Below, one piece after another: positions 2,223 to 32,000 of a stretch of DNA of 32,000 bases. Each line of letters opens with the position of its first letter. Position 1 is the stretch's first letter. The notes beneath the pieces were generated by a model. It ran no database searches, had not been told where the DNA came from, and worked only from the letters and a program-made list of their open reading frames with translations. The stretch is from assembly GCA_013202585.1 (NCBI GenBank), contig JABMPQ010000072.1:5729-37728 (forward strand), in the 5' to 3' direction. Both the position numbers and the translations under genes were made by a program. Origin of the DNA: Parcubacteria group bacterium. Lineage in GTDB: Bacteria; Patescibacteriota; JABMPQ01.

Positions 2223-2274
2223 AATTCTATAAAATAGTTACTTTTTCACTCTCCAATAGTCACTATCTTATCAT

Positions 2275-3556: not shown

Positions 3557-3563
3557 ATAGTTA

Positions 3564-4031: not shown

Positions 4032-4038
4032 AGTGTTA

Positions 4039-4734: not shown

Positions 4735-4780
4735 GATTATTTAATCGACTAACAGCCCGCCTAGCATAATTTGTATTATT

Positions 4781-4842
4781 TTACGATAGCTTTTTTAGTA
4801 TAATCGACTAGTTTTTGTTCGTCGGGGGTGAGGGTTGGCCAT
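4781..4842 (-). pseudogene. Remnant of the 5' end of a cytidine-deaminase gene (direct repeat of 3971-4031)
   Basis: About 52/61 nt match 3971-4031, including a 27-nt perfect core (4803-4829 = 3993-4019). The conserved frame reads PTLTPDEQKLVDYTKKAIVK then stop, against QTLTPDEQKLVDHAKKAVVKY in the intact gene. A 1-nt indel puts the ATG at 4842 out of frame. Confidence 0.6.
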
Positions 4843-4855
4843 AAACTACTTATTC

Positions 4856-5218
4856 TTAACTACTTTGCGTTTCAATATCATCATAGCTAGAAGTAGGTGT
4901 ATAATCTCCAATTTGAGTTTCTTGTTTTGTATTTAAAGTATCTTTAAATGATTTTTGGATATCTTTATGACTAGATCTTAATGTTGAAATAGTCGCTTTA
5001 TATTCAGATATAACATCTTTATAGCTTTCTCTGATCTGGTTAGAGAAAAAAGAGCCAAATGTATATAAAATACCAAATCCGATAGATATTGTTCCTAATA
5101 TTCCTGCCGGGGTATTAAAACTATTGTCAATTTTTAATAAAAAATAACCTGCAAGTAAAGTTAATAGTAATACTATTATAGATTGTAATTCGATTTTTTT
5201 TATTAGCTCTTTTAACAT
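4856..5218 (-). CDS. Small membrane protein (2 predicted TM helices, polar tail), unknown function
   Basis: 120 aa with hydrophobic stretches IIVLLLTLLAGYFLL and GILGTISIGFGILYTFGSFF. Starts 2 nt after the stop of the upstream ORF. Very AT-rich. Confidence 0.5.
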   Translation of the reverse strand: MLKELIKKIELQSIIVLLLTLLAGYFLLKIDNSFNTPAGILGTISIGFGILYTFGSFFSNQIRESYKDVISEYKATISTLRSSHKDIQKSFKDTLNTKQETQIGDYTPTSSYDDIETQSS

Positions 5219-5220
5219 AA

Positions 5221-5883
5221 TTATTTTGCTTGTATAAAGGTGTCGTTTAAAATAGACAAAAAATCATCTTTGTTTTTGAGATAATCCTTGAAACTATTCA
5301 ACATTTTTGAGATATCATCGATGTCAATTTTTCCTGTTTGAAAAATATCAACATCAAAAAGAACTCCGGGCGTTTTATTTTCATCGTTTTTTACCACCGA
5401 CTGAATCATTAAATTTATTTTAAAATTCTTTTTCGTATCTATTTCAAATTTGGCAATAGATAAAGATCCATTTTCAAATTTGGTAAGATTTTGAAAATAT
5501 TTTTTTTGGTTTTCTTGGTTGTCAAATTCAAAAATAAAATAATTCCGCCATCCGATACGATTAATTTTGTTTATATTAAGAATATCCAAAATTAACTTAC
5601 TTTCTGTGTTAAATAATTTTGCAATCATGTCCAACGAGTCTATTTCATTAAATTTCATCCAAACAATTTGAGGAGTGATTTTTAATTCATATATTTTGTC
5701 TCTTGGCGTTTTTATAACTAAGCCATTCAAATCCATGCTAAAAATAGGTGCCGCATCTTTACTGTGATACTTATTCACAATTTCACCAGCCTTATCAATA
5801 TATTGAAATCCTTCTACGGTATTTATTTGGATAAAACTTTCAGGATTTTTTAACTTATTTAGTTTTTGGATAGCATTGCTCAT
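5221..5883 (-). CDS. Hypothetical protein, possibly TIGR04255-like
   Basis: 220 aa. The NRIGWRNYF segment recalls the R-x-G-L-R-Y motif I associate with the uncharacterised TIGR04255 family (memory only). 8 nt downstream of the restriction gene. A sampled line (5401-5460) is 12/60 GC. Confidence 0.45.
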   Translation of the reverse strand: MSNAIQKLNKLKNPESFIQINTVEGFQYIDKAGEIVNKYHSKDAAPIFSMDLNGLVIKTPRDKIYELKITPQIVWMKFNEIDSLDMIAKLFNTESKLILDILNINKINRIGWRNYFIFEFDNQENQKKYFQNLTKFENGSLSIAKFEIDTKKNFKINLMIQSVVKNDENKTPGVLFDVDIFQTGKIDIDDISKMLNSFKDYLKNKDDFLSILNDTFIQAK

Positions 5884-5891
5884 AATAAAAA

Positions 5892-6686
5892 TTATATTAT
5901 AATGGTTGATTTCTCATACAACATTGGTAAACAATTCTGCCTCATGCGAAATTTTGTTCCGTGATTATGGCCAGTACGAGCATCAAAATCCACTAAGATT
6001 TTTCCTTCATCAAGAGCTTTTAAAAATCCTTCGAAGTTAAATTTCTGCAACATCATCACTTTTGTGTAATGATAGTATTCTTTCTTGCGTTTAACTTCTA
6101 CTTCTGCTTGTACATAAAAAGTATTAAGCAATTTTGTTCCAGCTTTATATTCCAAATCATCAAAACCCCAATAAGGCTGTGGATTAAGTTCACCAAGACC
6201 CGCCTTCTTTTTTACAAATCTAAGCCAATTCTTATGTTTTGGATCAACGCTTTTTGAATCAAATGAAATCAAAATTTTCTTTTCCTTGCGACTAACCACA
6301 ACTTTAAACCCACGATCACTTCTTGAATTGCCATGAATTGTTTGGCGAAAGCTCATTTCCCCTTTTGGGTATTTCTTGCCGTCTTCTTGGTGTGTCCAGC
6401 CATACAATGGAAGTAAAACTTGTGGCACAAAACGGACAGCACGTGGCGATGGCTCCATATGAAAAAGTGTTGTGAGAGATGTTGAATTTAAACATTGTGC
6501 TTTTAATTCCCACTCGGCGGCATTTGGGATCGGCAAATTATTTTCTTCAATTCCCAGTAAATCTTCTAAGGTATTACCAATTCCACCCTGATTGCCTTTT
6601 CGTGCATTTGGAATAAAACCTCTAGCAGAGATTTCTTTGAGTTTAGCTATTAAGGCCAGTTTTGTATAGATTGTCGGTTTTGCCAT
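5892..6686 (-). CDS. Type II restriction endonuclease, MvaI/BcnI family
   Basis: GNTLEDLLGIEENNLPIPNAAEWELKA...LTTLFHMEP parallels the BcnI N-terminal catalytic region (GQILERQFGVQENN...EFELKG...LTLFHKKP) as I recall it. It sits next to a beta-class MTase. Confidence 0.75.
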   Translation of the reverse strand: MAKPTIYTKLALIAKLKEISARGFIPNARKGNQGGIGNTLEDLLGIEENNLPIPNAAEWELKAQCLNSTSLTTLFHMEPSPRAVRFVPQVLLPLYGWTHQEDGKKYPKGEMSFRQTIHGNSRSDRGFKVVVSRKEKKILISFDSKSVDPKHKNWLRFVKKKAGLGELNPQPYWGFDDLEYKAGTKLLNTFYVQAEVEVKRKKEYYHYTKVMMLQKFNFEGFLKALDEGKILVDFDARTGHNHGTKFRMRQNCLPMLYEKSTIII

Positions 6687-6688
6687 AT

Positions 6689-7435
6689 TTAGAGTAGTTT
6701 AGTCTGTGATTGATGAACTTTAATTCTTTTTTTTGCTAATTCGCAATACTCCGGCGAGATATCAATTCCAATATAATCTCTTTTAGAATTTATAGCGGAA
6801 ATTGCCGTTGTGCCAGAACCTATGAATGGATCTAAAATAATCTTGGCATTTGTTGCAGAAATAATTCTATCAATTAGATTTACCGGAAAAGGAGCCGGAT
6901 GTCCATTTTTCATTTCCTGCGGTATCTCCCAAATATCACCATGGGCATTTGCCTTTTTGGCAAGTTTGAATTTCGGTTTAGCAATGAGGTAAATAACTTC
7001 GTAAGTGGGTAAAAAATAACCAGCATTAAAATTTAGTCCACCGGCACGTTTCCAAATGATAATTTGGCGAACCGGAAAATCACTGACAATATCTTGACGA
7101 TCTTGCAATAAGCCACCTTGGACACGCCATTTGTGATTGTAAAAAATAGCTCCATCTTCGGAGATTAGCCGCATCATCTCAATTAAGCAATCTCTTTGCC
7201 ATTTCACATATTCATCATGCGGTATATTATCGTCATAGTGTGAATAACCTTTTTGCAAAGCGGCATTTGCCCATTTTCCACCTCGTCCGTCTTTCATTCC
7301 GTTACCGGTAGAATTTTTAAGATTATATGGCGGTGAAGTAATAGCCAAATCAACCGATTCATTCGGTATTTTCTTCATGACATCAATTGCGTCACCGCAA
7401 ATGATTTTATTCGTAAATTTAGTAATGTTTTGCAT
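6689..7435 (-). CDS. DNA methyltransferase, N4-cytosine/N6-adenine beta class (N6_N4_Mtase)
   Basis: Motif IV SPPY (ITSPPYNL) is near the N-terminus and motif I DPFIGSGTT near the C-terminus. The IV-to-I order indicates the beta class. 2-nt gap to the REase gene. Confidence 0.9.
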   Translation of the reverse strand: MQNITKFTNKIICGDAIDVMKKIPNESVDLAITSPPYNLKNSTGNGMKDGRGGKWANAALQKGYSHYDDNIPHDEYVKWQRDCLIEMMRLISEDGAIFYNHKWRVQGGLLQDRQDIVSDFPVRQIIIWKRAGGLNFNAGYFLPTYEVIYLIAKPKFKLAKKANAHGDIWEIPQEMKNGHPAPFPVNLIDRIISATNAKIILDPFIGSGTTAISAINSKRDYIGIDISPEYCELAKKRIKVHQSQTKLL

Positions 7436-7576: not shown

Positions 7577-8329
7577 CTACAAAAGCACTCCTTCCAGCTT
7601 CTCCTTAATCCCGTACATCTCCAAGAGCTCCTCAATTCGTTGTCTGGTAGCCACATTCTCTAGCACTTTCTTGAACTCTGGATCGGGATTATCCAGTGGT
7701 CCGCGGCACCCTTGGCAGATCATACCCCCACCCGGACAAACTGCTTCACAGCCTCCTAATATAACTGGTCCCAAGCACGGCTGACCAAGTTGCAACAGAC
7801 ACGGAAACCCATGAATCTGACACTCATAGCACACCGGTCGTTGCGGGATCTTAGGAATCCGACCAGCCAAGAGCTCGTAGGTATAGCGAATAAATTCATC
7901 CGCATTGATCGGGCAACCGGGAATAGTAAAGTCCACCGGCACAAAGTCCGAGATCGGCTGCACCTTGGGGTCATGAATGCCCTTGGCATCGGGATAAACA
8001 AACTCCGCCTTGCAGACATCGCGGCGGTAATTTTTGATCTTGTACATTCCCCCTTCGGCCGCGCAGTTACCCAGCGCCACGACCAACCGCGACTTCTCGC
8101 GTAGCTTCACCAGATCTGTAAAATTATCCTTGGCAATCGGCGGTCCTTCGATAAAGGTAATATCATAGCTGTCTTCGGCCGGCAGCTCCTCGATCAAGTG
8201 AAAATCCACCACCTCCACCCGCTCGGTCAATTCAAAAAACAGCTTTCCCTTATCGAGAATGGCAAATTCACATCCTTCACAGTCGGAGAGAGCAATCAGG
8301 GCTACTTTTGGTTTGGTTTTTACTATCAT
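7577..8329 (-). CDS. hydD: [NiFe]-hydrogenase small subunit, group 3b (sulfhydrogenase delta)-like
   Basis: Cys clusters LSDCEGCE, LGNCAAEGG, IPGCP and CYECQIHGFPCLLQLGQPCLGPVILGGCEAVCPGGGMICQGCRGP align by eye with Pyrococcus HydD. Confidence 0.85.
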   Translation of the reverse strand: MIVKTKPKVALIALSDCEGCEFAILDKGKLFFELTERVEVVDFHLIEELPAEDSYDITFIEGPPIAKDNFTDLVKLREKSRLVVALGNCAAEGGMYKIKNYRRDVCKAEFVYPDAKGIHDPKVQPISDFVPVDFTIPGCPINADEFIRYTYELLAGRIPKIPQRPVCYECQIHGFPCLLQLGQPCLGPVILGGCEAVCPGGGMICQGCRGPLDNPDPEFKKVLENVATRQRIEELLEMYGIKEKLEGVLL

Positions 8330-8365
8330 CTTAATAAATATTATAAATCGAGCACTAGAAATTAT

Positions 8366-8566
8366 CTACAGAGGTTGACACGAATGGTCATATTTTGGAC
8401 ATATATATGGACAATAAGGATCATCGGTTGGGCAAAGAATTTTAAGACCAAGATAATTTTCTATATATCCTATTTTTGTTAAAATTGCCCAAGTTGCCAC
8501 AAATGCAATAAATATGGCTAAAACCACGACTAATATCAAGATTATGTGGATTATGTCTTTGCTCAT
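8366..8566 (-). CDS. Small single-TM protein with Cys-rich tail, unknown
   Basis: 66 aa with an N-terminal hydrophobic helix and the tail CPTDDPYCPYICPKYDHSC. Coding status uncertain. Confidence 0.35.
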   Translation of the reverse strand: MSKDIIHIILILVVVLAIFIAFVATWAILTKIGYIENYLGLKILCPTDDPYCPYICPKYDHSCQPL

Positions 8567-8583
8567 TTTGGATATATCATTAT

Positions 8584-9336
8584 TTAATAAACATTCCCAT
8601 TAGCCAAATTAATACTCAACTCCGTATAATATTTCAAGTTCTGTCGCTGCGTCACTGTCAATTTATCACACACCCAGTCCCAGTGAATCGTCACCCAATC
8701 ACCTGCCTTGAGTCCATTCACAAAGCTACTATCATTCTTCTGCCACTGACACCATTTGTCTGTTGCCTCACCCAGCGCGAGCTTGCCGTCCGTGTGCACT
8801 AATGGATAATATTTAACCAATACTTTGCCGTCGTCTACCTGCTTGACCTGCCCCCAGCTAATCTTACAAGCATCCATCGTCTCCACCGTATGCTCGACTG
8901 GATAATGGCCGGTGCGCTTGGGGATACTAATAACGTGAAAATTATGATGGGGCAGCGCGCCCTCCGGTATCGTCCCGACCACTTTGGCAAACAGCTCTGG
9001 CTTGAGCTTTTTCTTTAACTCTTGTACTTCTACCAAGTGATCATACAGCTGACTCTTCTGCACCTCCGTTAGTAAACTATTTCCTAGCCAATAGGCCTCA
9101 CTCACGCGGTAATCAAATATATCTTCGATCTTGTTGGCCTCAGCAATCAACTTCAGATATGGATACAATGTCGCAAAGTCCTCTAATATCTCCGTCAGTC
9201 CCGTATCACTTTGACCCGTAGCAGCGTATTCAAATAAATTGAAATTATCATCTCCGCCGCAATACTGCAGCTTATTTGGCATATAGGCGTAACGGCTACA
9301 GAGAACCGCGCCGTCATGAGGCGTGAGTGGATACAT
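8584..9336 (-). CDS. Conserved hypothetical protein inside the hydrogenase cluster
   Basis: 250-aa ORF overlapping the upstream EamA gene by 23 nt. The C-terminal roughly 80 aa show a HypC-like pattern (see findings). Confidence 0.55.
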   Translation of the reverse strand: MYPLTPHDGAVLCSRYAYMPNKLQYCGGDDNFNLFEYAATGQSDTGLTEILEDFATLYPYLKLIAEANKIEDIFDYRVSEAYWLGNSLLTEVQKSQLYDHLVEVQELKKKLKPELFAKVVGTIPEGALPHHNFHVISIPKRTGHYPVEHTVETMDACKISWGQVKQVDDGKVLVKYYPLVHTDGKLALGEATDKWCQWQKNDSSFVNGLKAGDWVTIHWDWVCDKLTVTQRQNLKYYTELSINLANGNVY

Positions 9337-10228
9337 GTGGTACAGCTAATTTCTTCTCTAAATGATACGTATAGGCCACAAATACTATTACCGCCACCAA
9401 GCTCAGCCCTATTCCTAGCCATTTCTCTGGTGTTGGTAGGACGCCCTTATAAATAGCGTTCAGGATGGTCGTAATCGGTGAGGCTAGCACTAATACGCTA
9501 GCTACTACTGATACCTTCTCGTAGGCCAAGGCGTGATACCAAGTCAACACGTAGCCACTCAAGAAAAGCACGCTGAGTCCGATCCAGAGCCACTGAGTAG
9601 TGCCGAGGGTAAAAATACCGGCAAATCCAGAGGTAAGGCTAAGATATGTTAGTAAAATGATCGAGCCAAAAAACATTCGCGCCCAAGCCACGATCTTGGG
9701 GTCAACAGTGCTCAGAGTCTTCTTGGCGATTACATTTTCTACTGACCATAATAAAGTTGCAGCTAATATCATTATCTCCGCCCAGCCAAAGGTAAATGCT
9801 TTGATACCAACTACCAGTCCAATGCCGATCAGCAACACTCCTAGAGCTAGCCACTGCACCTTGCCTAATTTTTCACGCAAGAAAAATATCGCCAAGACTG
9901 ACGCCCAAATAAATAATGTCTTATGAATAAAGCCAGCCATCGCCGGAGTAGTCAGACTCAATCCTTTGAAAAATAGTAAAAACGGAATACTACCGCCAAT
10001 AGTTCCGATGGCCAGTAGCTTATACCAATCCTGGCGTTTTATCGCGCGTAATTTCCGCCAAGTCATTGGCAATAATACGACAGAGCACAACACAACAGCC
10101 ACCAGGACGTTCTTGAGCGTCGTGAATTGGTAGGGATCGATATTATTGGTAACAGCAAATTTGCTGAAGAAAACTGCGAACCCACTGATTATCGCTGTGG
10201 CAAATGCTAATTTGATACCTTTGGACAT
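9314..10228 (-). CDS. EamA/DMT-superfamily transporter (10 TM)
   Basis: 304 aa made of two repeated 5-TM halves, with typical EamA-like hydrophobic periodicity. Confidence 0.75.
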   Translation of the reverse strand: MSKGIKLAFATAIISGFAVFFSKFAVTNNIDPYQFTTLKNVLVAVVLCSVVLLPMTWRKLRAIKRQDWYKLLAIGTIGGSIPFLLFFKGLSLTTPAMAGFIHKTLFIWASVLAIFFLREKLGKVQWLALGVLLIGIGLVVGIKAFTFGWAEIMILAATLLWSVENVIAKKTLSTVDPKIVAWARMFFGSIILLTYLSLTSGFAGIFTLGTTQWLWIGLSVLFLSGYVLTWYHALAYEKVSVVASVLVLASPITTILNAIYKGVLPTPEKWLGIGLSLVAVIVFVAYTYHLEKKLAVPHVSTHAS

Positions 10229-10230
10229 TT

Positions 10231-10443
10231 TTATTTTGCTTTATTAAAATAATCTAATACTTCTTTGGCCTCAGCAGCTGATATTTTCTCCGTTGCTAGA
10301 TTAGCTTGGGTCAGTAACCAGTCACCCCGCTTAGCCTTGGGGACTAATTTCAAGCTCACTACTAGTGTCTTGTCATTTTGCTCCACCTCGGCTTGCTCGT
10401 CGGGTAGTAGCTTCTTAACTTGTACTGGTATTGCGAAACACAT
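10231..10443 (-). CDS. hypC: HypC/HupF hydrogenase maturation chaperone
   Basis: 70 aa. N-terminal MCFAIP is the essential Cys2 MC(L/F)xIP motif, and there is a GDWLL segment. Confidence 0.8.
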   Translation of the reverse strand: MCFAIPVQVKKLLPDEQAEVEQNDKTLVVSLKLVPKAKRGDWLLTQANLATEKISAAEAKEVLDYFNKAK

Positions 10444-10459
10444 ATATTTTAGCTTGGTG

Positions 10460-10569
10460 GAGGGCCAGTATTATTCTTTTTTTGGCTGCGGAACTCGTCG
10501 CCCTCCCGGTAAGACCGGGATGACTCCTCAGACACCCGCAGGCTGCAAAAAAGAACAACACTAACCCTC
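10460..10569 (-). repeat. ERIC/MITE-like imperfect palindromic repeat, copy A (110 nt)
   Basis: 17-bp basal arms plus a T7/A6 extension enclose the GC-rich core ...CTGCGGGTGTCTGAG-hairpin-CGAGTTCCGCAG (minus-strand reading). Lies between the hydG stop and the hypC start. The strand given is the one on which arm mismatches become G:U. Confidence 0.7.
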
Positions 10570-10577
10570 ATAAATTT

Positions 10578-11405
10578 TTATATTGCCCCCTCAATGCCTT
10601 TAATCTTATCCCAACTGAATATTGGACCATCCTTACAGACAAAGTATGAACCAACCGCACAATGTTCACATTGACCGACCCCACACTCCATCCGTCGCTC
10701 GAGCGATAAATAAATATCCTCATCAGCAAAATTATGCTTTTTCAGCTCATTTATAACAAATTTACACATCACTGGCGGACCACAGACGATAGCGATTGCG
10801 TCCTTGATGACCTCTGTCTTGTCGAATAACTTGGTGATCAAGCCGATATCGCAATATACACCCTCGACCTTCTCACCCTCTTTGCCTTCATCGAGGGTCA
10901 AATGCATATCAATCTTCTTGCACCATTTATCATAATCGCTTTCAAATAGCAGTCCCTCTTTGTTTTTACTACCATAAAATACTTGAATGTCTTTGGGGTA
11001 ATTATCGGGATTATCACAGGCTGTTTCCAGAAGCGAGCGAAAAGGGATCATACCAATGCCGCCAGCGATGATTAGTGTATTTCTCTTCTTAATCTCGTCT
11101 GTCGGAAAACCATAACCATAGGGACCACGCACGCCAATCGTATCGCCTATCTTTAGCTCGTGCAGACGCTTCGTTAGTAATCCGATCTCCCGTACGCAGA
11201 TCTCAAAGTATTTACGCTCACTGGCCGATGAACAATAAGCCACCGGCGCTTCACCATAACCGGGCAGTGATATTTCAAGTATCTGGCCAGGATAGAATTC
11301 TGGTACGTCACTATTAACCATTTCCAGTCGAAAAAGCTTCACATCCGGAGTATCCACGGTGATTTTAGTGATCTTAGCCTCTTCGGTTTGATATTGATTT
11401 TTCAT
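10578..11405 (-). CDS. hydG: Hydrogenase gamma subunit-like FAD/NAD(P)-binding oxidoreductase with C-terminal 2Fe-2S
   Basis: 275 aa with a ferredoxin-NADP reductase-like fold pattern (GGIGMIPF) and the C-terminal cluster CGVGQCEHCAVGSYFVCKDG. Confidence 0.8.
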   Translation of the reverse strand: MKNQYQTEEAKITKITVDTPDVKLFRLEMVNSDVPEFYPGQILEISLPGYGEAPVAYCSSASERKYFEICVREIGLLTKRLHELKIGDTIGVRGPYGYGFPTDEIKKRNTLIIAGGIGMIPFRSLLETACDNPDNYPKDIQVFYGSKNKEGLLFESDYDKWCKKIDMHLTLDEGKEGEKVEGVYCDIGLITKLFDKTEVIKDAIAIVCGPPVMCKFVINELKKHNFADEDIYLSLERRMECGVGQCEHCAVGSYFVCKDGPIFSWDKIKGIEGAI

Positions 11406-11437
11406 GAATTAGATTCGATATTGCTTTAAATACTCTA

Positions 11438-11574
11438 AGGGATAATGTATTGTTCTTTTTCACAGCCTGCCCGCAATGCCTCGCGGCTAGCGATGGCAGG
11501 CGGGCTGCGGGTGTCTGAGCCCCGCCTCAGCGGGGCGAGTTCCGCAGCAAGAAAAAGAGTAATGCATTATCCCT
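11438..11574 (+). repeat. ERIC/MITE-like imperfect palindromic repeat, copy B (137 nt, with extra nested hairpin)
   Basis: The 23-bp basal stem (11438-11460 with 11552-11574) has 3 G:U pairs on the plus strand. It has the same core ends as copies A and C. Lies between the hydB stop and the hydG start. Confidence 0.7.
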
Positions 11575-11580
11575 CACCAG

Positions 11581-12576
11581 CTACAGTGCCCCCACCGGAT
11601 CACTATCTACAATCTTCTGCAATGTTTCATTGATATCAATTCCTACCGGACAAGTGCGGGTACAACGTCCGCAACCTACGCAACCAGGCAGGCCATACTG
11701 CTCTGGAATCCGCACAAATTTATGATAATACCAGAAATGAATCCGCTGAGCGGTATTTTCCAGGAACACGTGATCACCCGCCACTTCCGAAAACTCACGG
11801 TAAAAACATGAATCCCAACAACGCGTGCGCTCGCCTTCTCCTTCCGTTAAAACCGCTTCATCATCAATCCGAAAGCAATAACAGGTTGGGCAGGCAATAG
11901 TACACTTACCGCACTCGATACATTTCTTACCTAGCTCGTCCCAGATCTTCTGATCATGGTGATTTTTCAGCTGATCCTTGATGGCCAACGTTCTCTCTCC
12001 TAGACCTGTTTCCTTAATCGGGCCGGCGAATTGGATATGTTCGTAGTTAGAAAATCCAAATTTATCCAGCACCTCTTGTCCGTCCTCCGAACCAGTCATG
12101 ACGCGAAAGCTATCCCCTCGCTGCTCAAAAAAAATATCAAATTCTAAATGTTCGAGGATATCTTCTTCTAGCTTTTCCGAAAATACCTTAAAAGTCTTGG
12201 CGTCTTGCTCCGGAGCTACGCTTTGCCCTATGATCAACGTATTTCTCTTACGTCGCTGATAATAGGGATCTTTCTCATAAACATGATGAAATAGATTCAA
12301 CGCCTTGAGATCAAAAGTCGTCAGCCCAAAGGCTACTTGCTGCGGATAATCGTCTGACACCTCATTCAATTTTGCCCCCTGATAATCAAATAACTTCTCG
12401 CAAGGTGGTAGAAAGACCTTTTTCCAAGAATGATCAGTTAAGCAGCCATTTAGGACTAAATCAGCTGGCTGGGCTATTTTTTCCACCTCAAGAACGGAGC
12501 CTTTTTGAACAGGTCCGTAGACGACGTTATCTTGGAGAAGATATTCTAAAAATTTAGTGAGTTGATCTTTTGTCAT
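11581..12576 (-). CDS. hydB: Hydrogenase beta subunit-like 4Fe-4S dicluster protein (AsrA-like)
   Basis: CIECGKCTIACPTC and CVGCGRCTRTCPVG are ferredoxin motifs. I prefer the ATG at 12576 (MTKDQLTKFLEYL) because a TGcTACAAT extended -10 lies at 12598-12606. The track ORF starts at 12651. Confidence 0.8.
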   Translation of the reverse strand: MTKDQLTKFLEYLLQDNVVYGPVQKGSVLEVEKIAQPADLVLNGCLTDHSWKKVFLPPCEKLFDYQGAKLNEVSDDYPQQVAFGLTTFDLKALNLFHHVYEKDPYYQRRKRNTLIIGQSVAPEQDAKTFKVFSEKLEEDILEHLEFDIFFEQRGDSFRVMTGSEDGQEVLDKFGFSNYEHIQFAGPIKETGLGERTLAIKDQLKNHHDQKIWDELGKKCIECGKCTIACPTCYCFRIDDEAVLTEGEGERTRCWDSCFYREFSEVAGDHVFLENTAQRIHFWYYHKFVRIPEQYGLPGCVGCGRCTRTCPVGIDINETLQKIVDSDPVGAL

Positions 12577-12597
12577 GATTTCCACGATAATAGAGGA

Positions 12598-12606
12598 ATT
12601 GTAGCA
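12598..12606 (-). promoter_or_regulatory. Putative extended -10 promoter element (TGCTACAAT) for hydB
   Basis: The reverse complement of 12598-12606 reads TGCTACAAT, 21 nt upstream of the ATG at 12576. Confidence 0.35.
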
Positions 12607-12712
12607 TAAATATGATTGGGATGAAATAAAATTGGCTAATAGACTAGACAATATTGATATAAGAGATAAAATGTAAATCTAATATTCACCCTTCCCTTAA
12701 ATCAACTATATT

Positions 12713-13344: not shown

Positions 13345-13998
13345 CTACCAAATAGCACCACGTAATTGATCACCTATATCCCTTGGTATAGATGCGGTGA
13401 ATTTATGCGATAGCTTGTAGGCATCTGTCCAGATGTCTATTTCCTCGTCTGAACTGCGGGCTAGCTTCAATATCAATTCATCCTTGTCTCGGACGTCTTG
13501 ACACGGCATTTTTCCCAGACTACGTTCAGCGAAGAACCGTAGATCACTACCAATCGACTCCAAAATATGGTTAATCGATTTTATCTTGCGTTCCTCACTT
13601 GTTATGTGCACCGTGAACTTTATGTCCCGCTGAACAGTCGTTACCTCGACAAGGCCACCAACTTCTTCCATTACCGTCCCCGGTCTTTCCTGGCATTCCT
13701 CTTCATGTGTCACGGTACTAATACTTATCGGTTCAGAAAGTGCTACTTCACCTAACATAAGTAGCATTCCCGCGAATTCGACATCTCTGCCTATAGTTCC
13801 CGTCGTAATCTCATGACCTACCGATCTAGTCAACCCCCGGGACATGTCCAGCATTTTGAGGACATTTTTCACTGCATCAATACTAACCGAAACCAGCTCT
13901 GTCGATTTGCCCATTTTATAAATTTCCAACAAGTAGGCGAAAATCGGCACGAGATTGCAAGGTACTTTCCGTTTGACCATAGCTTTCTTCCGAGCCAT
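13345..13998 (-). CDS. Hypothetical protein (217 aa)
   Basis: AGGAGG (reverse complement of 14005-14010) lies 6 nt upstream of the ATG. I recognise no family. GC slightly above the local background. Confidence 0.55.
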   Translation of the reverse strand: MARKKAMVKRKVPCNLVPIFAYLLEIYKMGKSTELVSVSIDAVKNVLKMLDMSRGLTRSVGHEITTGTIGRDVEFAGMLLMLGEVALSEPISISTVTHEEECQERPGTVMEEVGGLVEVTTVQRDIKFTVHITSEERKIKSINHILESIGSDLRFFAERSLGKMPCQDVRDKDELILKLARSSDEEIDIWTDAYKLSHKFTASIPRDIGDQLRGAIW

Positions 13999-24910: not shown

Positions 24911-26095
24911 ATGAACATGGCACTGGAAGAAATTGCAGAACTAGTTGAGCTCGTTACGCGCATCCGGCGGCGGATGCACATGTGTCCCGCGCTACGATGG
25001 CAGGAAGACGAGACCCTGCAGTACCTCGAGGGACTATTCCTCGAAGTCTGCAACGGAAAGGACATCTTTCGCATCCGCCGCAAGAGGGGTGGAACATTGG
25101 TGGACATCAAGTTCGACTCGAACTTCTCCTGGGACGCCTGGCGGGCTGAAGTGGATGCCCTGCCGATTCAGGAGAACACCGGCCTGGAATTCGCCTCCAC
25201 CGTCGAGGGAGTGTCCCAGGCCTGCGGCCACGACTTCAGTCCAGCGATGGCGATGGGTGCCCTGTGGGCGCTCAGCCGGGACATTGTCCGGCCCACGCAT
25301 AACATCCGACTAATGCTGCAGCGAGCCGAAGAAAACCCAGGCGCGCCACCAGAGCCCCGTTCAGGTGGAGACATTCTGGTCAATGATGACGGTGCGCTAG
25401 AAGGGATGGATCGAGTGCATATTTTGCATATCCTTTCGACTCTCCCCCTCGGCGAATTCCACTCTCGGCAGGGGCCGCTCATGGGCTGTTCCGACCGGAT
25501 GGGCATCAAGTTCACTGCCACTGGCGGTCACGTCATGGAGCCGCATATCGGATCCAACGCCATGCAGATGCTCCAGGCAACAATGAACTACCTCGACAGC
25601 TTCGCCGCCCGCCACACCAGCCCCTTTGAGCCGCTGGTGATTGAGCCAACCAGCGCTGACTTTGGCGACGGCCAAAGCACCAGCAACATCCGTCCGGCAG
25701 ATGGCAGTGCCTGGTGGGCAGTGCGGCACATGCTGGATAGAGAGGGACAGACTCAGCTTCAGGTCGACCTCCGGGTGGGGATTGAGCAGGCACTGAGTAT
25801 ATTCCAGGAATCCGGAGTGGAAATCAACATGGTTGATGGTCACCCGACGACCACCAACTCCGATTTCCCTGAGGTCGCAGAAGTGCTGAAGAGCGCTGGT
25901 CTCGCTGTCGTGGAAGGCAAGCCGGAGCTAGGCGGCGATGACGCTGCCTACTATCTGCAAAAGTGCAGAGGCTCCTACTGGTTTCTGGGCGCTGGCGGTC
26001 CCGACTACGCCGGTCACCACACGGCCAAATTCGACCCCAACGAGAAAGCTCTGATCCACGGCGTTCAGTTCTGGCTGGCCATGGCCTCCCGCTAA
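24911..26095 (+). CDS. M20D-family amidohydrolase (N-acyl-amino-acid amidohydrolase / hippuricase-like)
   Basis: RRRMHMCPALRW, EVDALPIQE, QACGHD, QRAEE, GGDDAAYY and HHTAKFD track the conserved M20D motifs (RRxxHxxPEL, DMDALP, HACGHD, QPAEE, GxEDF, HHPxF). The purine-rich GGAAGGA lies just upstream, and the ATG at 24917 is an alternative start. Confidence 0.85.
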   Translation: MNMALEEIAELVELVTRIRRRMHMCPALRWQEDETLQYLEGLFLEVCNGKDIFRIRRKRGGTLVDIKFDSNFSWDAWRAEVDALPIQENTGLEFASTVEGVSQACGHDFSPAMAMGALWALSRDIVRPTHNIRLMLQRAEENPGAPPEPRSGGDILVNDDGALEGMDRVHILHILSTLPLGEFHSRQGPLMGCSDRMGIKFTATGGHVMEPHIGSNAMQMLQATMNYLDSFAARHTSPFEPLVIEPTSADFGDGQSTSNIRPADGSAWWAVRHMLDREGQTQLQVDLRVGIEQALSIFQESGVEINMVDGHPTTTNSDFPEVAEVLKSAGLAVVEGKPELGGDDAAYYLQKCRGSYWFLGAGGPDYAGHHTAKFDPNEKALIHGVQFWLAMASR

Positions 26096-26163: not shown

Positions 26164-26338
26164 ATTTGCGAAGCGAATGAGAGAAAAGCAAAATCTTTTT
26201 GCTTTTCCGAATGAGCAAGCAAACAAGAGACGAAGTCTCTTATTTGCGAAGTCCTGCCTGCCGGCAGGGAGTGAGATCCCGATCTGATCGGGACGAACGA
26301 ACAAGCAAACAAGGGGCGAAGCCCCTTATTTGCGCAAG
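26164..26338. repeat. Array of at least five hairpins, including two 29-nt paralogous hairpins (26219-26247, 26305-26333) and a thrice-repeated TTATTTGCG(A/C)AAG motif
   Basis: Hairpins at 26183-26207 (11 bp), 26219-26247, about 26255-26268 (CCTGCCGGCAGG), about 26277-26293 (TCCCGATC/GATCGGGA) and 26305-26333. See findings. Confidence 0.6.
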
Positions 26339-26343
26339 ATAAT

Positions 26344-27276
26344 TTAAACTTTCACTCCCATTAAATAACTCATCACCGCCAACATCGATTCCATGTGGAG
26401 CTCTTTGTTGGAGTAAATAGCACGTGAATCCGGATCAACATCGCGTTCAATCTCGAAAATCAGCGGGGTGAGCATATCGAGGAATGCATCTGACCGTAAT
26501 TTCTTCATATGGTCAGTGGTAATTGGCTTATACTTTTTCAGGATCGTTTCCTCTTTTTCTTTGGGAAATTTATCGTCAGGAATAATACCTTTTTGCAAGC
26601 CCCGGGTAACTAACAGATAATCAACTTCGCCGATAAAATCATCCAATTTACCATACTCTAGCTTTTTCAGGCCATTTTTCTTAGCTTGTTCTTCTACATC
26701 TTTCGGCAGCGGAAACTCACCAAAATCATCAATATATAATTCGATACCAAAGTGGCCCATAATTGGCACCATTGCTTTACAACAACGATTTATTTCTGGT
26801 GTACCGTAAATTCCAACCTTTAAGCCTTCAACTCGCTTTAGATAATGATAAACATTAACCAGCATCATCGCTGCGGCCACCGCGTGCTCTTTGGAACCAC
26901 TGCCACCGTTGACCACCGGCACGCGTGATACTTTAGCCGCTCGCTCGGCCGAGTCTTCATCGGGATGACGGAGAACAATTACATCAGCATAGCCAGAATA
27001 AGTCCGCACAGTGTCTTCTAGACTCTCTCCTTTTTCCATCGAGAGACCCTCTTCTCCCATTACGCCAACCCAGCCACCGCCAGCTTTTAACATCGTAGCT
27101 TGCGCGGAAGTCATCGTGCGCGTCGAGGGTTGGAAAAATAAAGTGGCGACCACTTTGCCGGTCATTAAATCAGTTGGGATACCTTCCCTGATAAATTTGT
27201 CCGCTCGCTTAAAAATTTCCTCGTAGCCAGCTTTGTCGATGTCCTTGGAATACACTAGGTGTTTTGGTTTGGCCAT
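26344..27276 (-). CDS. Divergent aspartate/ornithine carbamoyltransferase-fold protein
   Basis: FFQPSTRTMTS (STRTR-like), KGESLEDTVRT, VLRHP and TRGLQKG are retained. The HPTQ and HPLPR regions are replaced by EHAVA and LTPLIF. Confidence 0.7.
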   Translation of the reverse strand: MAKPKHLVYSKDIDKAGYEEIFKRADKFIREGIPTDLMTGKVVATLFFQPSTRTMTSAQATMLKAGGGWVGVMGEEGLSMEKGESLEDTVRTYSGYADVIVLRHPDEDSAERAAKVSRVPVVNGGSGSKEHAVAAAMMLVNVYHYLKRVEGLKVGIYGTPEINRCCKAMVPIMGHFGIELYIDDFGEFPLPKDVEEQAKKNGLKKLEYGKLDDFIGEVDYLLVTRGLQKGIIPDDKFPKEKEETILKKYKPITTDHMKKLRSDAFLDMLTPLIFEIERDVDPDSRAIYSNKELHMESMLAVMSYLMGVKV

Positions 27277-27349: not shown

Positions 27350-27420
27350 ACTGCCAATTTTGCCTAAAACTTGTTTTGGTTGCAAAATCGAGTACCCCGA
27401 TGAGCGTAGCGACATCGGGA
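27350..27420. repeat. Conserved 71-nt intergenic element, copy 1
   Basis: 64/71 identical to 30271-30341. Contains two hairpins (ATTTTGC...GCAAAAT and CCCGATG-N10-CATCGGG). Begins immediately after a swivel-protein stop codon. Confidence 0.7.
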
Positions 27421-28722
27421 CTAGTTTATTTTCTTCACTATTCCTTGTTTAGCATCCACTTCTACCCGATCACCATCTTTCAGCGCCTGGGTCGCGATTT
27501 TCGTTCCAATCACACAGGGTTTTTTCATCTCCCGAGCAAGAATAGCAGCGTGGCAGGTAATCCCGCCCTCATCAGTAACAAAAGCGGCTGCCTTATTCAT
27601 GGCTACGATATAGGCAGGAATGGTCATGGGCGTGACTAATATGTCTCCTTCTGTCACCTTATCAACTTCGCGCGGATTATTTACCACTTTTACCGTCCCC
27701 TTAGCCTTCCCTGGCCAGGCTATATTTCCCTTAATTTCATTTGTCCCGGTCTCTTGCCTTGAAATAATTACTGGATGATCAAATACAGCGATGTCATTAT
27801 AGTACTTTATAATAGCTGACCGCGTTGGGTCTCGCTTAGTAATAATTTTTCCACTCTGAATATCGCTAGGTATGCAGTCTCGCACAGATTCAACCCCCAA
27901 TGCCTCTGCTGCTCGCTCAAATATCGGCTGAGCCAGGTAATATAACTCATATAGAGCATCGGTGCGAAAAGTGCGCAAGAACACTAATTCTTGCAACTCA
28001 GCCACTAAATCACGTAGCGATTGCGGTATATCCGGCTGTTTTATTTTTTCGGCTGGCTTGGCTGACACTTCTTGTTGAATTTTTTTCATCTCCGCCCGAC
28101 TAAAGCCAGGGGCAAAACCTCCTTCAATCCGGGTCTTCATCCAGGCATATTCTTGGTGTAGTTCTTCTAAGCTTACTCCCTGGCGAATATCATCTTCCAT
28201 CAAATTATGCGCGGTTTTTTTCAAGGGCTTGCTGATATCACCAATAAATTTTTCCGCCTCTGCTTCAACAACGAACTCTTTAGCTTTCTCGTTGGCAATA
28301 GGGATGTAATATTCTTCACAGCCATGGGCGACCCAAATGTAAACATTAAAAGGCGAAATCAAATTAACCACCTGTCGATACAATTCTACTGGATTTGTTT
28401 GTTTATCAGCTATTAGCTGAGGAATTTTTGCTTTAATTTCTCGGTATGAATCTTCGCATTGTTTAGTGAGAACAAAAATGTCAGTTTTTTGTAGATATCT
28501 TCCGGCTTCCTCCGCTGCCGCCTTAATCATTTCTGGACAACGGTACCAAGTATAAGAGTCGTAAGCAACGATGGGATACTCGCCATCAATACCTTGAGTT
28601 TTAAAAGCTGCTCGGGTGGCATTCTCGAACATCATATAGGTAACCAAAAAAGCGTAGGGACGGTGAAGCCAGACTTCCCAGTCCATGGCTGTTATTTTCT
28701 CTTTTACTTGTTCTTTATTCAT
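27421..28722 (-). CDS. PEP-utilising-enzyme mobile (swivel phosphohistidine) domain protein with an uncharacterised helical N-terminal region (paralogue P1)
   Basis: C-terminal [22 protein letters not shown] fits the PEP-utilisers phosphohistidine signature. The protein ends about 25 aa after this domain. The start overlaps the P2 stop (ATGA). Confidence 0.8.
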   Translation of the reverse strand: MNKEQVKEKITAMDWEVWLHRPYAFLVTYMMFENATRAAFKTQGIDGEYPIVAYDSYTWYRCPEMIKAAAEEAGRYLQKTDIFVLTKQCEDSYREIKAKIPQLIADKQTNPVELYRQVVNLISPFNVYIWVAHGCEEYYIPIANEKAKEFVVEAEAEKFIGDISKPLKKTAHNLMEDDIRQGVSLEELHQEYAWMKTRIEGGFAPGFSRAEMKKIQQEVSAKPAEKIKQPDIPQSLRDLVAELQELVFLRTFRTDALYELYYLAQPIFERAAEALGVESVRDCIPSDIQSGKIITKRDPTRSAIIKYYNDIAVFDHPVIISRQETGTNEIKGNIAWPGKAKGTVKVVNNPREVDKVTEGDILVTPMTIPAYIVAMNKAAAFVTDEGGITCHAAILAREMKKPCVIGTKIATQALKDGDRVEVDAKQGIVKKIN

Positions 28723-30248
28723 ATCTTCTTAGCTATGCCTTTACTGGCATCCACCTCTACTCTATCGCCAGTTTGGAAAGCTTTGGTGGCAATTTTGGTG
28801 CCAATAATACAGGGTATTTTTAGCTCGCGTGATACTACGGCGGCATGGCTGGTGATCCCGCCTTGTTCCGTCACGATGGCGGCCGCTTTTTTCATGACGG
28901 GGACAAAATCAGGAGTAGTTTGGTTAGCGACTAAAATCTCACCTACTTGAAATTTTATCATATCCGCTTTTGACTTTATTACTCGGACAATCCCGGTAGC
29001 TTTACCCAAAGAAGCCCCGACACCACGCAACTCCTTAACATCCTCAGATTGCTGCTGCTCTAGATGAACAAAATACTTGTTCGCAGCAGTGCCAGCGACA
29101 ACATAGTAACCAGCCGGCGTAACAGCGTAGAATATTTGGTCTTTCCGCGCCGCAATTTTCTTTAGCAAGTCCCGATCGCCTGACAACACTTCGCACACTT
29201 CTTCGAACACCAAAAATGTCATGTCTTTAGTCGTAATTCCTGCTCGACCACCAATCTCCGCTAAAAATTTCTCAAAATGAGACATCCCCACATAGACTCC
29301 ACTTTTACGCACGTCCTTCCATTCGGTAAACAGGTCAGAGATTTGTAAAACATTACGGTGAAACTCATCAAGAGGTAGATTAGCCAAGACCTGCTGTCGT
29401 TTTTCCTCATAATCTTTTATTTCTCGTTGCTTCTTCTGATATCGGTCAGCTAAATTTTTACCCTCACTTACCAGCTGTTTCAATCTGTCATAAAAATCGG
29501 CCAGGCTAATAATTTCCGCCTGATAGTAATTATTTGCCATCCAATAATATTTCTGGCGGTGTTTTTGTAAAGATTTGTATAATTTAGGCGATTCTTTTTC
29601 TAAAACTTTGCGATCCGGCAATTTACTACCATAGTGCTCACTGAATTTTACTGCCAAGCCCAATAAATCAAATTCTTCTTCGATCGTGAAAGATAAAAAT
29701 CCCGGCGAGAGCAAAATCCGCAAGATTTCATCACGATCGCCAGTAACTTCCATTTCGGCCAACGCCTCCCGAAACATTTCCTCCAACCAATCCGTCTCGC
29801 CCGTTGACATAAAAGAATCAGCTAAATAAGCGGCGGCGCCCGCACCTAAATATAGTTGATAGAATTCCTTAAAGTCTCGGATCAACTCTTCGTCAGTCAA
29901 TTTACCTAGATTTTTATCCAACAGTTCCTCTGAACAATTTATGTACTCAGCCCAGTCAGCCTGCCAAGCGCGGTAACGTTGCATGACGTGCTCTGTTCCT
30001 TGCCGAGCTTCTTCCACCACCCAGTCCTTAACTTTCACCAAGCTTTCTTGATCCAGAAACCACTGCGCTTGCTCGCCTTTAATAAAACAAAAACAAAATT
30101 TATAAGGGATGGGGATTACCTGGGCGAACCGAAAAACCTCCGTTTCCGAAGAAGCAAACAAAGTAAAAACTTTGCTTTCAAATGACTTGTTGTATTGCTC
30201 CCCCACTTTAGCCACTACATCTAGGGGAAACTTGGTCAGTTTTTTCAT
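28719..30248 (-). CDS. PEP-utilising-enzyme mobile domain protein, paralogue P2
   Basis: C-terminal GGITSHAAVVSRELKIPCIIGT. The N-terminal region shares QKYYWM and EWKDVRK blocks with P3. Confidence 0.8.
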   Translation of the reverse strand: MKKLTKFPLDVVAKVGEQYNKSFESKVFTLFASSETEVFRFAQVIPIPYKFCFCFIKGEQAQWFLDQESLVKVKDWVVEEARQGTEHVMQRYRAWQADWAEYINCSEELLDKNLGKLTDEELIRDFKEFYQLYLGAGAAAYLADSFMSTGETDWLEEMFREALAEMEVTGDRDEILRILLSPGFLSFTIEEEFDLLGLAVKFSEHYGSKLPDRKVLEKESPKLYKSLQKHRQKYYWMANNYYQAEIISLADFYDRLKQLVSEGKNLADRYQKKQREIKDYEEKRQQVLANLPLDEFHRNVLQISDLFTEWKDVRKSGVYVGMSHFEKFLAEIGGRAGITTKDMTFLVFEEVCEVLSGDRDLLKKIAARKDQIFYAVTPAGYYVVAGTAANKYFVHLEQQQSEDVKELRGVGASLGKATGIVRVIKSKADMIKFQVGEILVANQTTPDFVPVMKKAAAIVTEQGGITSHAAVVSRELKIPCIIGTKIATKAFQTGDRVEVDASKGIAKKI

Positions 30249-30270
30249 ATTGATCAGCTATAATTTTTTT

Positions 30271-30341
30271 ACTGCCAATTTTGCCCAAAACTTGTTTTGG
30301 CTGCAAAATTGAGCATCCCGATGAGCAAAGCGACATCGGGA
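30271..30341. repeat. Conserved 71-nt intergenic element, copy 2
   Basis: 64/71 identical to 27350-27420. Lies between the P3 stop (30342) and the P2 start (30248). Confidence 0.7.
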
Positions 30342-31781
30342 TTAACCCATTTTCTTTACTGATCCTTTGTCAGCGTCTATCTTTATTCTATCACCATCCT
30401 TCAAGGTAGCGGTAGCCGTTTGCACTCCTACTAGGCAAGGAATCTTCAGCTCACGCGCTACGATCGCCGCATGACAAGTCAAACCCCCTTCATCAGTCAC
30501 AATCCCACCTGCTTTTTTCATTATCGGTAAATAATCCGGCCGGGTCATAACTGCTACAATAATATCGCCCTCTTTTACCTTAGAAAAATCATCTCTAGTC
30601 AAAACAACTCGCACTTCTCCTTGTACCACCCCTGAGCTGGCGCACATTCCCTTAATGTCATCCTGACGCAAAGATTCTGCAAGCAAATTAGTTAATTTTT
30701 CCGCCTCCTGATCGTAAAAACGATACCACTCACCCATTTTAGGTCCATAGCCATAAACTATGCCAGCTTGTCTCTTCTTCAGCTCTTTGGCAATACCAGC
30801 CGGCAACTGCCAGCCCTTAATATCCCATAAATTAAGGAAATGGAGTAACTCCAGCTCGATCTTATTAACCTTACTAAGCCTCTCCAAAATTTGATACAGA
30901 TAATGATTAATAATACAGATGCTTTTTTTGCGCACGTCTCGCCACTCAGTCATTTGCGAGAATAAATAAAAAACATTTTGCAATGACTGACTGATATTTT
31001 TAGACTTTTGCAATGCTACTTTTTGCTCGGCGACATGCTGCAAATCTTTATTAATTTTATCTACTTCGCCAACACGCTGATCGATTTTTTTAACATCCTG
31101 CTCGATTTTTTCTCTAAAATCGTCAATGGTTAGTCTAGCCACTTCGTGCCAATTACTTCCTAGCCAAAAATATTTCTGCTGATGATTTGCTAGCTGCTTG
31201 GCAGTATCCTTACCAGCTTTATAATCCTGAGCTATCTGAACTCGGGCAATAAGTTCCTGCTGTTGCTCCGTTGGACTATCGGGACTGATCAAAATGGCGA
31301 TTTCTTCGCTAGATAGTTCTACTTTTTCCTTAGCGACCAATTCAGTCAATATTTTATCACCCTCGGGATCAAATACTTCAATTACCAAAGCTACAATCCA
31401 GCTATCCAAAGACAATTTAGTAATTTCTTTTAGGTTGTCGGTAAGCTCCTGATCACTCCAATCCGCTACTGGCCGACTGAATTTGGCCTGCAATAAATCC
31501 ATCATCTGGCCATCAAGAGCCTGCCACTGCTTGATCTTGTCATCTATGTAATCTCTACTCTTCTCAGCTTTTTTTATGATTTCTCTAGCCTTTTTCGTTT
31601 CTTCGTCTCTATTGAAATAGGCAATATTCTCCCGACCTATTTGGGTAGTAATGCAATTATCGTATCCTAATAGTTTATAGATTGATTTATAGGGCCGAAA
31701 ACTATAGAAAAAACTGAACTCACCCCCTTGGCGATACCAGTTTTTTGCTTTAATATTTTCGGCTAACTCTGCGTATTTCAT
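30342..31781 (-). CDS. PEP-utilising-enzyme mobile domain protein, paralogue P3
   Basis: C-terminal [22 protein letters not shown]. Carries QKYFWL and EWRDVRK blocks. The start overlaps the P4 stop (ATGA). Confidence 0.8.
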
Positions 31782-32000
31782 TTTAATTCTCTTACTACTC
31801 CATGATTGGCCCGCACCTCGATCTGCATCCCGTCCCGAAAGACTTTGGTCGCTTTTTTAGTGCCAATGACGGTTGGAATATTAAGCTCGCGCGCCACAAT
31901 CGCGGCGTGGCAAGTAATCCCACCCTCGTCAGTCACAATGGCGGCCGCTTTTTTCAAAGCGGGCATAAATTCCGGCCTAGTCATCGAGGCAACGATAATA
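31778..32000 (-). CDS. PEP-utilising-enzyme mobile domain protein, paralogue P4 (C-terminal fragment; gene continues beyond the window)
   Basis: [22 protein letters not shown]. The frame stays open upstream of the track Met (…[11 protein letters not shown], compare [12 protein letters not shown] in P3). Confidence 0.75.

Follow-up and report, generated by a model that had tools for sequence, protein, structure and literature searches.

Eight tandem swivel-domain genes in a Parcubacteria genome resemble the substrate subunits of a split rifampin phosphotransferase-type dikinase

A two-component subfamily of dikinases was defined in 2025 from three enzymes of aromatic degradation (PMC12167813). 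In each of these systems, HpeHI of Rhodococcus, CreHI of Corynebacterium and PpsAB of Thauera, one subunit (S) combines a substrate domain resembling that of rifampin phosphotransferase (RPH) with a C-terminal swivel domain bearing the phosphocarrier histidine, and a separate ATP-grasp protein (HpeI, CreI or PpsB) is the second component (PMC12167813). In RPH itself R666, E667 and K670 hold the phosphate of rifampin-phosphate, and the second half-reaction is lost in R666A or E667A variants (PMC4844700). Both the chemistry and the split architecture are thus already known, the latter from PpsAB, CreHI and HpeHI. The present analysis concerns a 32,000-nt stretch of the genome of a Parcubacteria group bacterium (contig JABMPQ010000072.1; hereafter the window), at one end of which lie four tandem genes, P1 to P4, whose products end in a swivel domain. 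These are probably the last four of eight S genes of a split RPH-type, ATP-dependent small-molecule dikinase, in which a single ATP-grasp protein, here termed G, would most likely charge many S subunits. The observations behind this reading are the architecture of the proteins, their homology of fold with RPH, the conservation of a catalytic block and, in relatives, the linkage and fusion of G with S. A preliminary description of the window, made from its letters alone, had offered either an uncharacterised phosphotransfer pathway with no visible catalytic partner or a substrate-diversified kinase family. The second is the best reading of the evidence; the first is not supported, the S architecture being that of HpeHI, CreHI and PpsAB and a PPDK_N gene being found beside the arrays of relatives.

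P1 (27421..28722, 433 aa), P2 (28719..30248, 509 aa) and P3 (30342..31781, 479 aa) are open reading frames (ORFs) on the minus strand, and the last 73 codons of P4 (31778..32000, minus strand) fall inside the window. Beyond its edge the array was read from Logan contig L001, which agrees with the window with 0 mismatches across 5,696 bases and supplies 8.2 kb more sequence. This contig yields the full P4 gene (484 aa, to extended coordinate 33232, minus strand) together with four further S genes upstream of it, S4 to S1, reaching up to extended coordinate 38576. The complete series comprises eight tandem paralogues of 490, 480, 347, 465, 484 (P4, or S5), 479 (P3, or S6), 509 (P2, or S7) and 433 (P1, or S8) aa, all containing PF00391, among which S3 is the short one at 347 aa. 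Intergenic gaps along the eight genes are -4, -8, +2, -4, -4, +93 and -4 nt, so that coupling takes the form of a six-gene run, a spacer and then one coupled pair. The preliminary description had placed the ORFs correctly and had suggested that extending the contig would recover the missing part of P4 and genes upstream, as it did; its four tandem paralogues are eight on the longer contig. Its two translationally coupled pairs hold as far as the overlaps go, an ATGA start/stop overlap being present between P4 and P3 at 31778-31781 and between the P2 stop and the P1 start at 28719-28722, but the pairing itself dissolves once the six coupled genes are seen.

The domain content of the S proteins is simple. 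PF00391, the swivel domain, is their sole Pfam domain and lies at the C-terminus of P1 (residues 357-427, E 4e-26), P2 (434-504), P3 (403-473) and the partial P4 (E 1e-24), with E-values of 1e-24 to 3e-28 overall. Scores for P1 to P4 are 86-97.5 bits against a cut-off of 23.1, which the four upstream paralogues also pass, and the chain ends 5-6 residues past the end of the domain. Neither PF01326 (PPDK_N) nor PF02896 (the phosphoenolpyruvate (PEP)/pyruvate barrel) has a Pfam match in P1 to P4, even at E<=1. The terminal swivel domain and the missing barrel had been claimed beforehand, and no ATP-grasp signature had been seen by eye; all three points are borne out. The phosphocarrier histidine of the GGxT[CS]HAA motif is His391 in P1 (putatively catalytic; codon 27550-27552, minus strand), His468 in P2 (codon 28845-28847, minus strand) and His437 in P3 (codon 30471-30473, minus strand); it is invariant or nearly so in an alignment of 73 sequences and invariant in one of 62.

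Models of NCBIfam for PEP synthase, pyruvate phosphate dikinase (PPDK), pyruvate kinase, RPH, PigC/RedH and Enzyme I match the S proteins in the swivel region, save for extensions in P2 and P3. The PEP synthase models cover just positions ~350-460, and the Enzyme I models match the swivel region alone, at 36-44 bits against cut-offs of 342-824. P2 goes further, with residues 221-505 aligned to positions 589-886 of the RPH-like model PRK06241, and both P2 (283-506) and P3 (244-476) reach into the C-terminal third of the RedH model. A search with the P3 N-terminal domain (N-domain) alone returned 457 cluster representatives, nearly all of them 440-520 aa long with the domain starting at the N-terminus, and this near-uniform length and placement imply that the split form is the norm. 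Relatives of 669-838 aa are tandem S-S fusions carrying two swivel domains (e.g., P0025, P0028, P0033, P0036, P0038, P0050 and P0053). Precomputed annotations had also listed fusions of S with UDP-GlcNAc 2-epimerase (PF02350) and with AcnX (PF01989). On rescanning, the former proved to be weak partial matches, overlapping the swivel in P0032 and P0025, and PF01989 was not recovered (P0036); both kinds of fusion were set aside. An Xre-type helix-turn-helix domain (HTH_3) fused to S in P0071 is the sole genuine extra domain among the proteins rescanned.

Predicted structures relate the whole S chain to RPH. The AlphaFold2 models of P3 (pLDDT 95.6, pTM 0.92) and P1 (pLDDT 92.5, pTM 0.85) were compared with the PDB using Foldseek, and RPH-Lm ranked first for both (5fbs, 5fbt, 5fbu and 5hv1; E 2e-13 to 2e-12, TMq 0.43-0.50) over the whole query. 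P3 aligned at E ~2e-13 over 442-477 columns, and the best match of P1 was again RPH-Lm, at E 4e-13. TMq exceeded 0.4 for RPH alone; every other significant match stood at 0.23 or less, approximately the swivel's own share. As modelled, the N-terminal region of ~330-400 aa is a mostly helical counterpart of the RPH ligand-binding domain and contains no ATP-grasp. The resemblance to the RPH layout minus its ATP-grasp, put forward in the preliminary description, is therefore upheld by the whole-chain matches of P3 and P1. Sequence profiles carry the comparison to individual residues. A profile of 73 family members was aligned to RPH-Lm 620-866 and placed the family motif w-R-D-x-R-K on Y-R666-E667-Y-P-K670 of RPH, residues of a type kept even in the most distant RPH clades. 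In P3 this block reads WRDVRK (residues 280-285; 30927-30944, minus strand) and in P2 WKDVRK (residues 310-315; 29304-29321, minus strand), and D282, R284 and K285 in P3 numbering are invariant or nearly so across the 73 sequences. Five of the eight paralogues (S1, S2, P4, P3 and P2) have the D-x-R-K core; S3 has D-A-H-K, S4 has D-R-K-K, and P1 has instead the conserved variant RTxRTD (RTFRTD, residues 250-255; 27958-27975, minus strand).

P1 belongs to a divergent subfamily of more than 120 members, 425-440 aa in length, in which R250, R253 and D255 of the variant block (R250-T-x-R253-T-D255) are invariant. A hidden Markov model of the N-domain built without P1 did not detect it. In profile-profile comparison the P1 subfamily nonetheless matched the main family with 98.7% probability (E 3e-16, 301 columns), across a span that includes the HQEYAWM/HQQKYFW motif. 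A full-length alignment of P2 with P3 shows 26% identity across 467 aa (E 2e-53). Mutual homology of the N-terminal regions, as first proposed by eye, thus stands for P2 and P3 by direct alignment and for P1 by profile and structure model. The swivel domains of the array paralogues are 47-64% identical and the N-domains only 19-27%. The duplication of an approximately 3-kb two-gene unit supposed in the preliminary description is not supported: the N-domain identities of P4 with P2 (21%) and of P3 with P1 (19%) are no higher than those of other pairs, and much closer relatives occur in other genomes, so that a recent duplication was rejected. All eight paralogues have full-length relatives elsewhere at 32-54% identity, among them a full-length relative of P2, 50% identical, in locus L012. 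Because the closest relatives of each paralogue lie in other genomes, the array consists of ancient, separately maintained subfamilies, neither the product of a recent two-gene duplication nor in decay.

The same evidence bears on whether these genes encode working enzymes. S genes could in principle be remnants of PEP synthase, broken up or in decay, or swivel proteins with a non-catalytic regulatory or scaffold role. In favour, such proteins are annotated merely as 'PEP-utilizing enzyme' or hypothetical (P3 is a 100% match to NCBI HQ530_05490, from a metagenome-assembled genome of a Parcubacteria group bacterium), S3 is just 347 aa long, and the P1 block has lost its acidic and Lys residues. 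The ORFs are nevertheless intact and tightly coupled, the structure models of P3 and P1 are very confident, and the swivel histidine and the block arginines are invariant. The N-domain is not a PPDK_N remnant, and the arrangement, transcarbamylase-like gene included, recurs in relatives, so that neither of the outcomes named in the preliminary description as refuting it came about. Conserved relatives exist elsewhere for all paralogues, the short S3 and the variant P1 among them. This explanation is close to refuted.

The ATP-grasp that S subunits lack is encoded separately in relatives. S loci were collected from GTDB species representatives, 78 in all, belonging to the Patescibacteria, Woesearchaeota, Micrarchaeota, Nanoarchaeota, Iainarchaeum and a few others. 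They hold a median of three and a maximum of 10 S genes, with at least five in 28 of the 78. Within or at the 3' end of these arrays lies a stand-alone PPDK_N (PF01326) ATP-grasp gene of 312-334 aa, the gene for G. According to the gene maps, a stand-alone G lies no more than 10 kb from S genes in 29 of the 78 loci, on the same strand in 28 of those 29, and it is present also in L002, L003 and L085. Approached from the other side, the two G-centred loci that were examined both carry S genes in arrays immediately upstream of G. The two parts also occur as one polypeptide, since G+S fusions of 801-830 aa are found in three of the 78 loci (L030, L045 and L064), and the N-terminal part of these fusions is 72-75% identical to stand-alone G. 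At L092, outside the 78, a 1313-aa PPDK_N and swivel protein (1626-5567) heads the S array. A search for G homologues gave 7,963 of 8,000 scored candidates at E<=1e-20, and the best 120, which were inspected, are 68-82% identical to the query G. Median pairwise identity is 53% for G versus 23% for S N-domains. Because G is well conserved and the S N-domains are both very divergent and multi-copy, one G most likely serves many S, which would differ from one another in substrate.

By analogy with RPH, PpsAB and HpeHI, a mechanism can be proposed in which ATP would be bound by G, and the phosphocarrier histidine of S, in the GG[IL]T[CS]HAA motif of its C-terminal swivel, would dock on G and take the beta-phosphate, with release of AMP and inorganic phosphate. 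The swivel would then swing back to its own N-domain, where the R-D-x-R-K block, as the counterpart of RPH Arg666/Glu667/Lys670, would hold the phosphate in place for its transfer onto a small molecule bound there. That chemistry, the sharing of G and the small-molecule nature of the substrates are what we infer for the array.

Several findings weigh against this picture as applied to the window. No G homologue was found by tblastn in the 32-kb window or its 8.2-kb extension, some 40 kb around the array, nor is there one in the close relatives L084 (10.9 kb) and L089 (21 kb). A G partner in the window's clade is accordingly an assumption; it may be encoded elsewhere in the genome, or the histidine may be charged another way. 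In L091, a locus with no stand-alone G, a canonical full-length PEP synthase and a pyruvate kinase are encoded 7 kb away from a P1-type gene (L091 1156-3600). In the P1 subfamily other residues stand where the block has its acidic residue and Lys, and to judge from its sequence its chemistry may differ. The S proteins are also ~150 aa shorter than HpeH, and the PRK08296 models (~570-630 aa and swivel-ending, with HpeH and PpsA assumed to be included) match only the last 105-110 residues of S, at 64-113 bits against cut-offs of 578-730.

Some of these points would be accommodated if the S proteins had no dedicated ATP-grasp and their histidine were charged by the nucleotide domain of a PEP synthase or PPDK in trans, by a small phosphodonor (acetyl phosphate, for example), or by another phosphorylated metabolite, in which last case phosphate would be moved between metabolites. 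The lack of G around the window's array and in L084 and L089 suits such an arrangement, as does the PpsA of L091. HpeH alone moves phosphate from 4-phosphoacetophenone to acetovanillone (PMC12167813). Phosphate acetyltransferase is encoded within S arrays in eight loci and acylphosphatase in one, and the S swivel is closer to that of PEP synthase than to that of RPH (for P3, 134 versus 79 bits), with the Thr of GGxT[CS]H present. Opposed to this are the frequency of G-S linkage and G+S fusion within the same family and the wide occurrence of G in public data; many loci, moreover, are cut by contig ends, so that missing G genes are to be expected. No swivel domain is known to be charged by acetyl phosphate. 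A G-independent source of phosphate is on balance unlikely, and the split dikinase with a shared G remains the preferred interpretation.

The genes around S arrays offer some indication of what the arrays act on. In the window the array is followed, +144 nt beyond P1, by a transcarbamylase-like gene (26344..27276, minus strand) encoding a 310-aa divergent protein of aspartate transcarbamylase (ATCase) type (OTCace_N E 8e-30; C-terminal domain E 0.033), which scores 154 bits against a 237-bit cut-off for the NCBIfam ATCase model. Compared with the ATCase of P. abyssi it keeps the phosphate-binding STRT, RH, His134, Arg167 and Arg229/Gln231, and it shows R56 -> M, PTQ -> AVA (carbamoyl recognition being lost) and HPLPR -> LTPLIF. 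It may, speculatively, act on a phosphorylated product of an S kinase. ATCase-like homologues occur in the S arrays of seven loci, including the window's, and in the close relative L089. In L084 the orthologue of P3 is 77% identical and the array is syntenic; in L089 the orthologue of P1 is 76% identical, and the order runs eight S genes, ATCase-like, M20, DUF5674, Metallophos and later genes as in the window. The preliminary description had proposed asking whether array, transcarbamylase-like gene and a 71-nt repeated element co-occur in related genomes. Array and gene do, and the element is absent from L089.

Across the 78-locus survey, genes within S arrays include phosphate acetyltransferase (Pta; eight loci, with a second family, Pta-like by eye and without a Pfam match, in five), HD-domain proteins (eight loci), the histidine-phosphatase superfamily (His_Phos_1; seven loci and several smaller groups), HAD hydrolases (six loci, with a further unannotated family, HAD-like by eye and without a Pfam match, in five) and TrmB-type regulators (six loci). 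In L006-L083, L085, L087 and L088 the arrays are interspersed with His_Phos_1, HD, HAD, phosphate acetyltransferase, acylphosphatase and TrmB genes on the same strand. These recurrent neighbours point to phospho-metabolite chemistry and do not identify the substrates.

They bear too on a reading that keeps the enzymology and changes its purpose, namely that the arrays are a defensive battery of RPH-like kinases, each inactivating a different antibiotic or toxin of the host or of neighbours. That RPH is the closest solved structure would suit such a role, and so would ligand domains that have diversified strongly within tandem arrays, as genes in an arms race typically do. The blocks by which RPH contacts rifampin are, however, not recognisable in the S proteins in a sequence alignment covering RPH 620-866, there is no meaningful PADLOC match, and the genes that recur nearby encode phosphatase-type enzymes, Pta and ATCase-like proteins, with no resistance or efflux genes among them. 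Each subfamily is in addition conserved across distant genomes of the Candidate Phyla Radiation (CPR) and the DPANN archaea, as would suit housekeeping substrates. Defence is distinctly unlikely as the function of the arrays, and split dikinases acting on metabolites are preferred to it.

A gene of 462 aa precedes the array and is divergently transcribed (L001 119-1507, minus strand; extended coordinates 38668-40056). It belongs to no Pfam or NCBIfam family, has a marginal RimK/ATP-grasp-like motif at the C-terminus (E 0.13) and is conserved in L084 at an identity of 80%. It was considered as an alternative ATP-grasp partner and rejected, because it is absent from L089 and from all 78 GTDB loci and so is not a general partner. 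L084 has, a few kb upstream of its array, an ISNCY-family transposase (1496-2767, plus strand) next to a baeRF/eRF1-like gene, a hint of rearrangement near the array start.

The array and the transcarbamylase-like gene form an operon-like unit in which the latter is last. A strong terminator-like hairpin with a 13-bp stem (26305..26333, minus strand) stands just after that gene, and transcription of the unit likely ends there. The hairpin belongs to a repeated GC-rich element, GCAAACAAGGGGCGAAGCCCCTTATTTGC with variants, which occurs at several gene ends, in the window at 26208-26248 and 26294-26334, in L001 at 20-60 and also in the close relative L089 at ~13760-13800; it looks like a terminator-type repeat family. 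Within the unit, the 71-nt elements noted earlier between and after the pairs were confirmed as two copies identical at 64 of 71 positions, with 0 matches expected by chance. Copy 1 (27350..27420, minus strand; fold z = -1.1) starts right after the P1 stop codon and shares its 3' end with a sigma-70-like box, TTGGCA/TTGACG, that precedes the transcarbamylase-like gene. Promoter-like sites lie nearby at 27357-27329 and 27350-27321, and the tail of copy 1 forms a -35-like box. Copy 2 (30271..30341, minus strand) begins right after the P3 stop codon in the 93-nt spacer between P3 and P2 and folds into two hairpins (-31.5 kcal/mol, z = -5.05). No further copy was found in the window, in L001 or in ~90 other loci including L089. 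The element is a local intergenic repeat, no part of the conserved system, that, from its sequence and position, may act as a transcript-end or processing hairpin. A conserved regulatory RNA was considered and rejected, since there are two copies only, close relatives lack it and a scan of the consensus gives no terminator call. Neither an Rfam family nor a tRNA was found in the window.

Other features of the window are recorded for completeness. Outside the array its gene content is in keeping with a CPR bacterium. An M20-family peptidase ORF (24911-26095, plus strand) is ~60% GC versus ~42% for the genome and lies on the strand opposite to nearly all its neighbours. Its L089 orthologue is syntenic and similarly deviant (61% versus 42% GC), which argues against an assembly chimera; an old unameliorated transfer or selection for unusual composition would fit. 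At 1068-7435 and 7577-12651 there are a Fic-domain gene, Bro-N, a restriction-modification pair (N6_N4_Mtase with MvaI_BcnI) and then a hydrogenase-like cluster with an NADH-quinone oxidoreductase 20-kDa-type small subunit, HypC, and Fe-S and FAD/NAD subunits.

S arrays are common yet unstudied in the ultra-small CPR bacteria and DPANN archaea, and no paper in the library searched ties PEP-utilising-domain proteins to these organisms. Some 11 kb of one small genome is spent here on eight ancient, individually conserved kinase subunits, and relatives have up to ten. Ultra-small symbionts of the CPR and DPANN make do with a minimal metabolism, which leaves the question of how they obtain and keep their metabolites; the S-subunit reading suggests that many different small molecules may be trapped or activated by phosphorylation. 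It is possible, if rather doubtful, that the arrays are a hub of 'one charger, many acceptors' throughout CPR and DPANN, with one G and up to ~10 divergent S, each trapping or activating a different metabolite of host or environment; in the window's clade the linkage to the charger would have been lost or another charger would be used. CPR bacteria typically have genomes of ~1 Mb, and in a genome of that size such a hub, if real, would take up ~1%. The S-subunit reading also offers concrete, testable enzymology in the combination of G, S and ATP, and would extend the two-component dikinase subfamily far beyond aromatic catabolism.

Set beside known systems, the array shares features with several and coincides with none. 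Enzyme I of the phosphotransferase system (PTS) likewise has a swivel histidine and a helical partner-binding subdomain, and P2 329-501 aligns weakly to Enzyme I 54-222; the S proteins differ in having no PEP-binding C-terminal domain, the Foldseek TMq is ~0.17, and the acceptor of Enzyme I is a protein, HPr. The parallel with the PTS is rather one of logic, one Enzyme I serving many Enzymes II, of which the proposed hub would be the small-molecule counterpart. PEP synthase provides the most similar swivel (100-134 bits in NCBIfam and 171 bits against PDB 8a8e, ahead of the RPH swivel), and the N-terminal nucleotide-binding part of PpsA and PPDK is PF01326, the same domain as G. Unlike PpsA and PPDK, the S chain has neither a TIM barrel (PF02896) nor an ATP-grasp, and its N-domain is unrelated to the domains of PpsA. 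PigC, RedH and HapC belong to the same RPH-type superfamily, and P2 and P3 align to the C-terminal third of RedH, but they are single chains of ~880 aa with their own ATP-grasp, and the match reaches 82 bits against a cut-off of 1350. With RPH-Lm (5FBS, 5FBT, 5FBU and 5HV1) P3 and P1 have their best full-length structural match, a swivel at the extreme C-terminus and the block-9 Arg/Glu/Lys falling on R-D-x-x-K; RPH differs in carrying its ATP-grasp in the same chain, in an identity of 13-19%, in rifampin-binding blocks not detectable in S and in the swivel motif GGLMTH. HpeHI, CreHI and PpsAB show the same S/G split, with an ATP-grasp of ~310-340 aa encoded nearby, whereas none adjoins the window's array. 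HpeH is ~650 aa, compared with 347-509 aa for S here, and both HpeH and RPH have Met where the S swivel has the PEP synthase-type Thr (GGxT[CS]H). One S per G is found in those systems, in contrast to up to 8-10 S per array in the CPR/DPANN family, and their hosts are aromatic degraders, whereas those of S arrays are CPR bacteria and DPANN archaea. What distinguishes the present family from a known chemistry and a known split is thus its shorter S, its PEP synthase-type swivel, its position outside PRK08296, its up to ten S per G and its spread across CPR bacteria and DPANN archaea.

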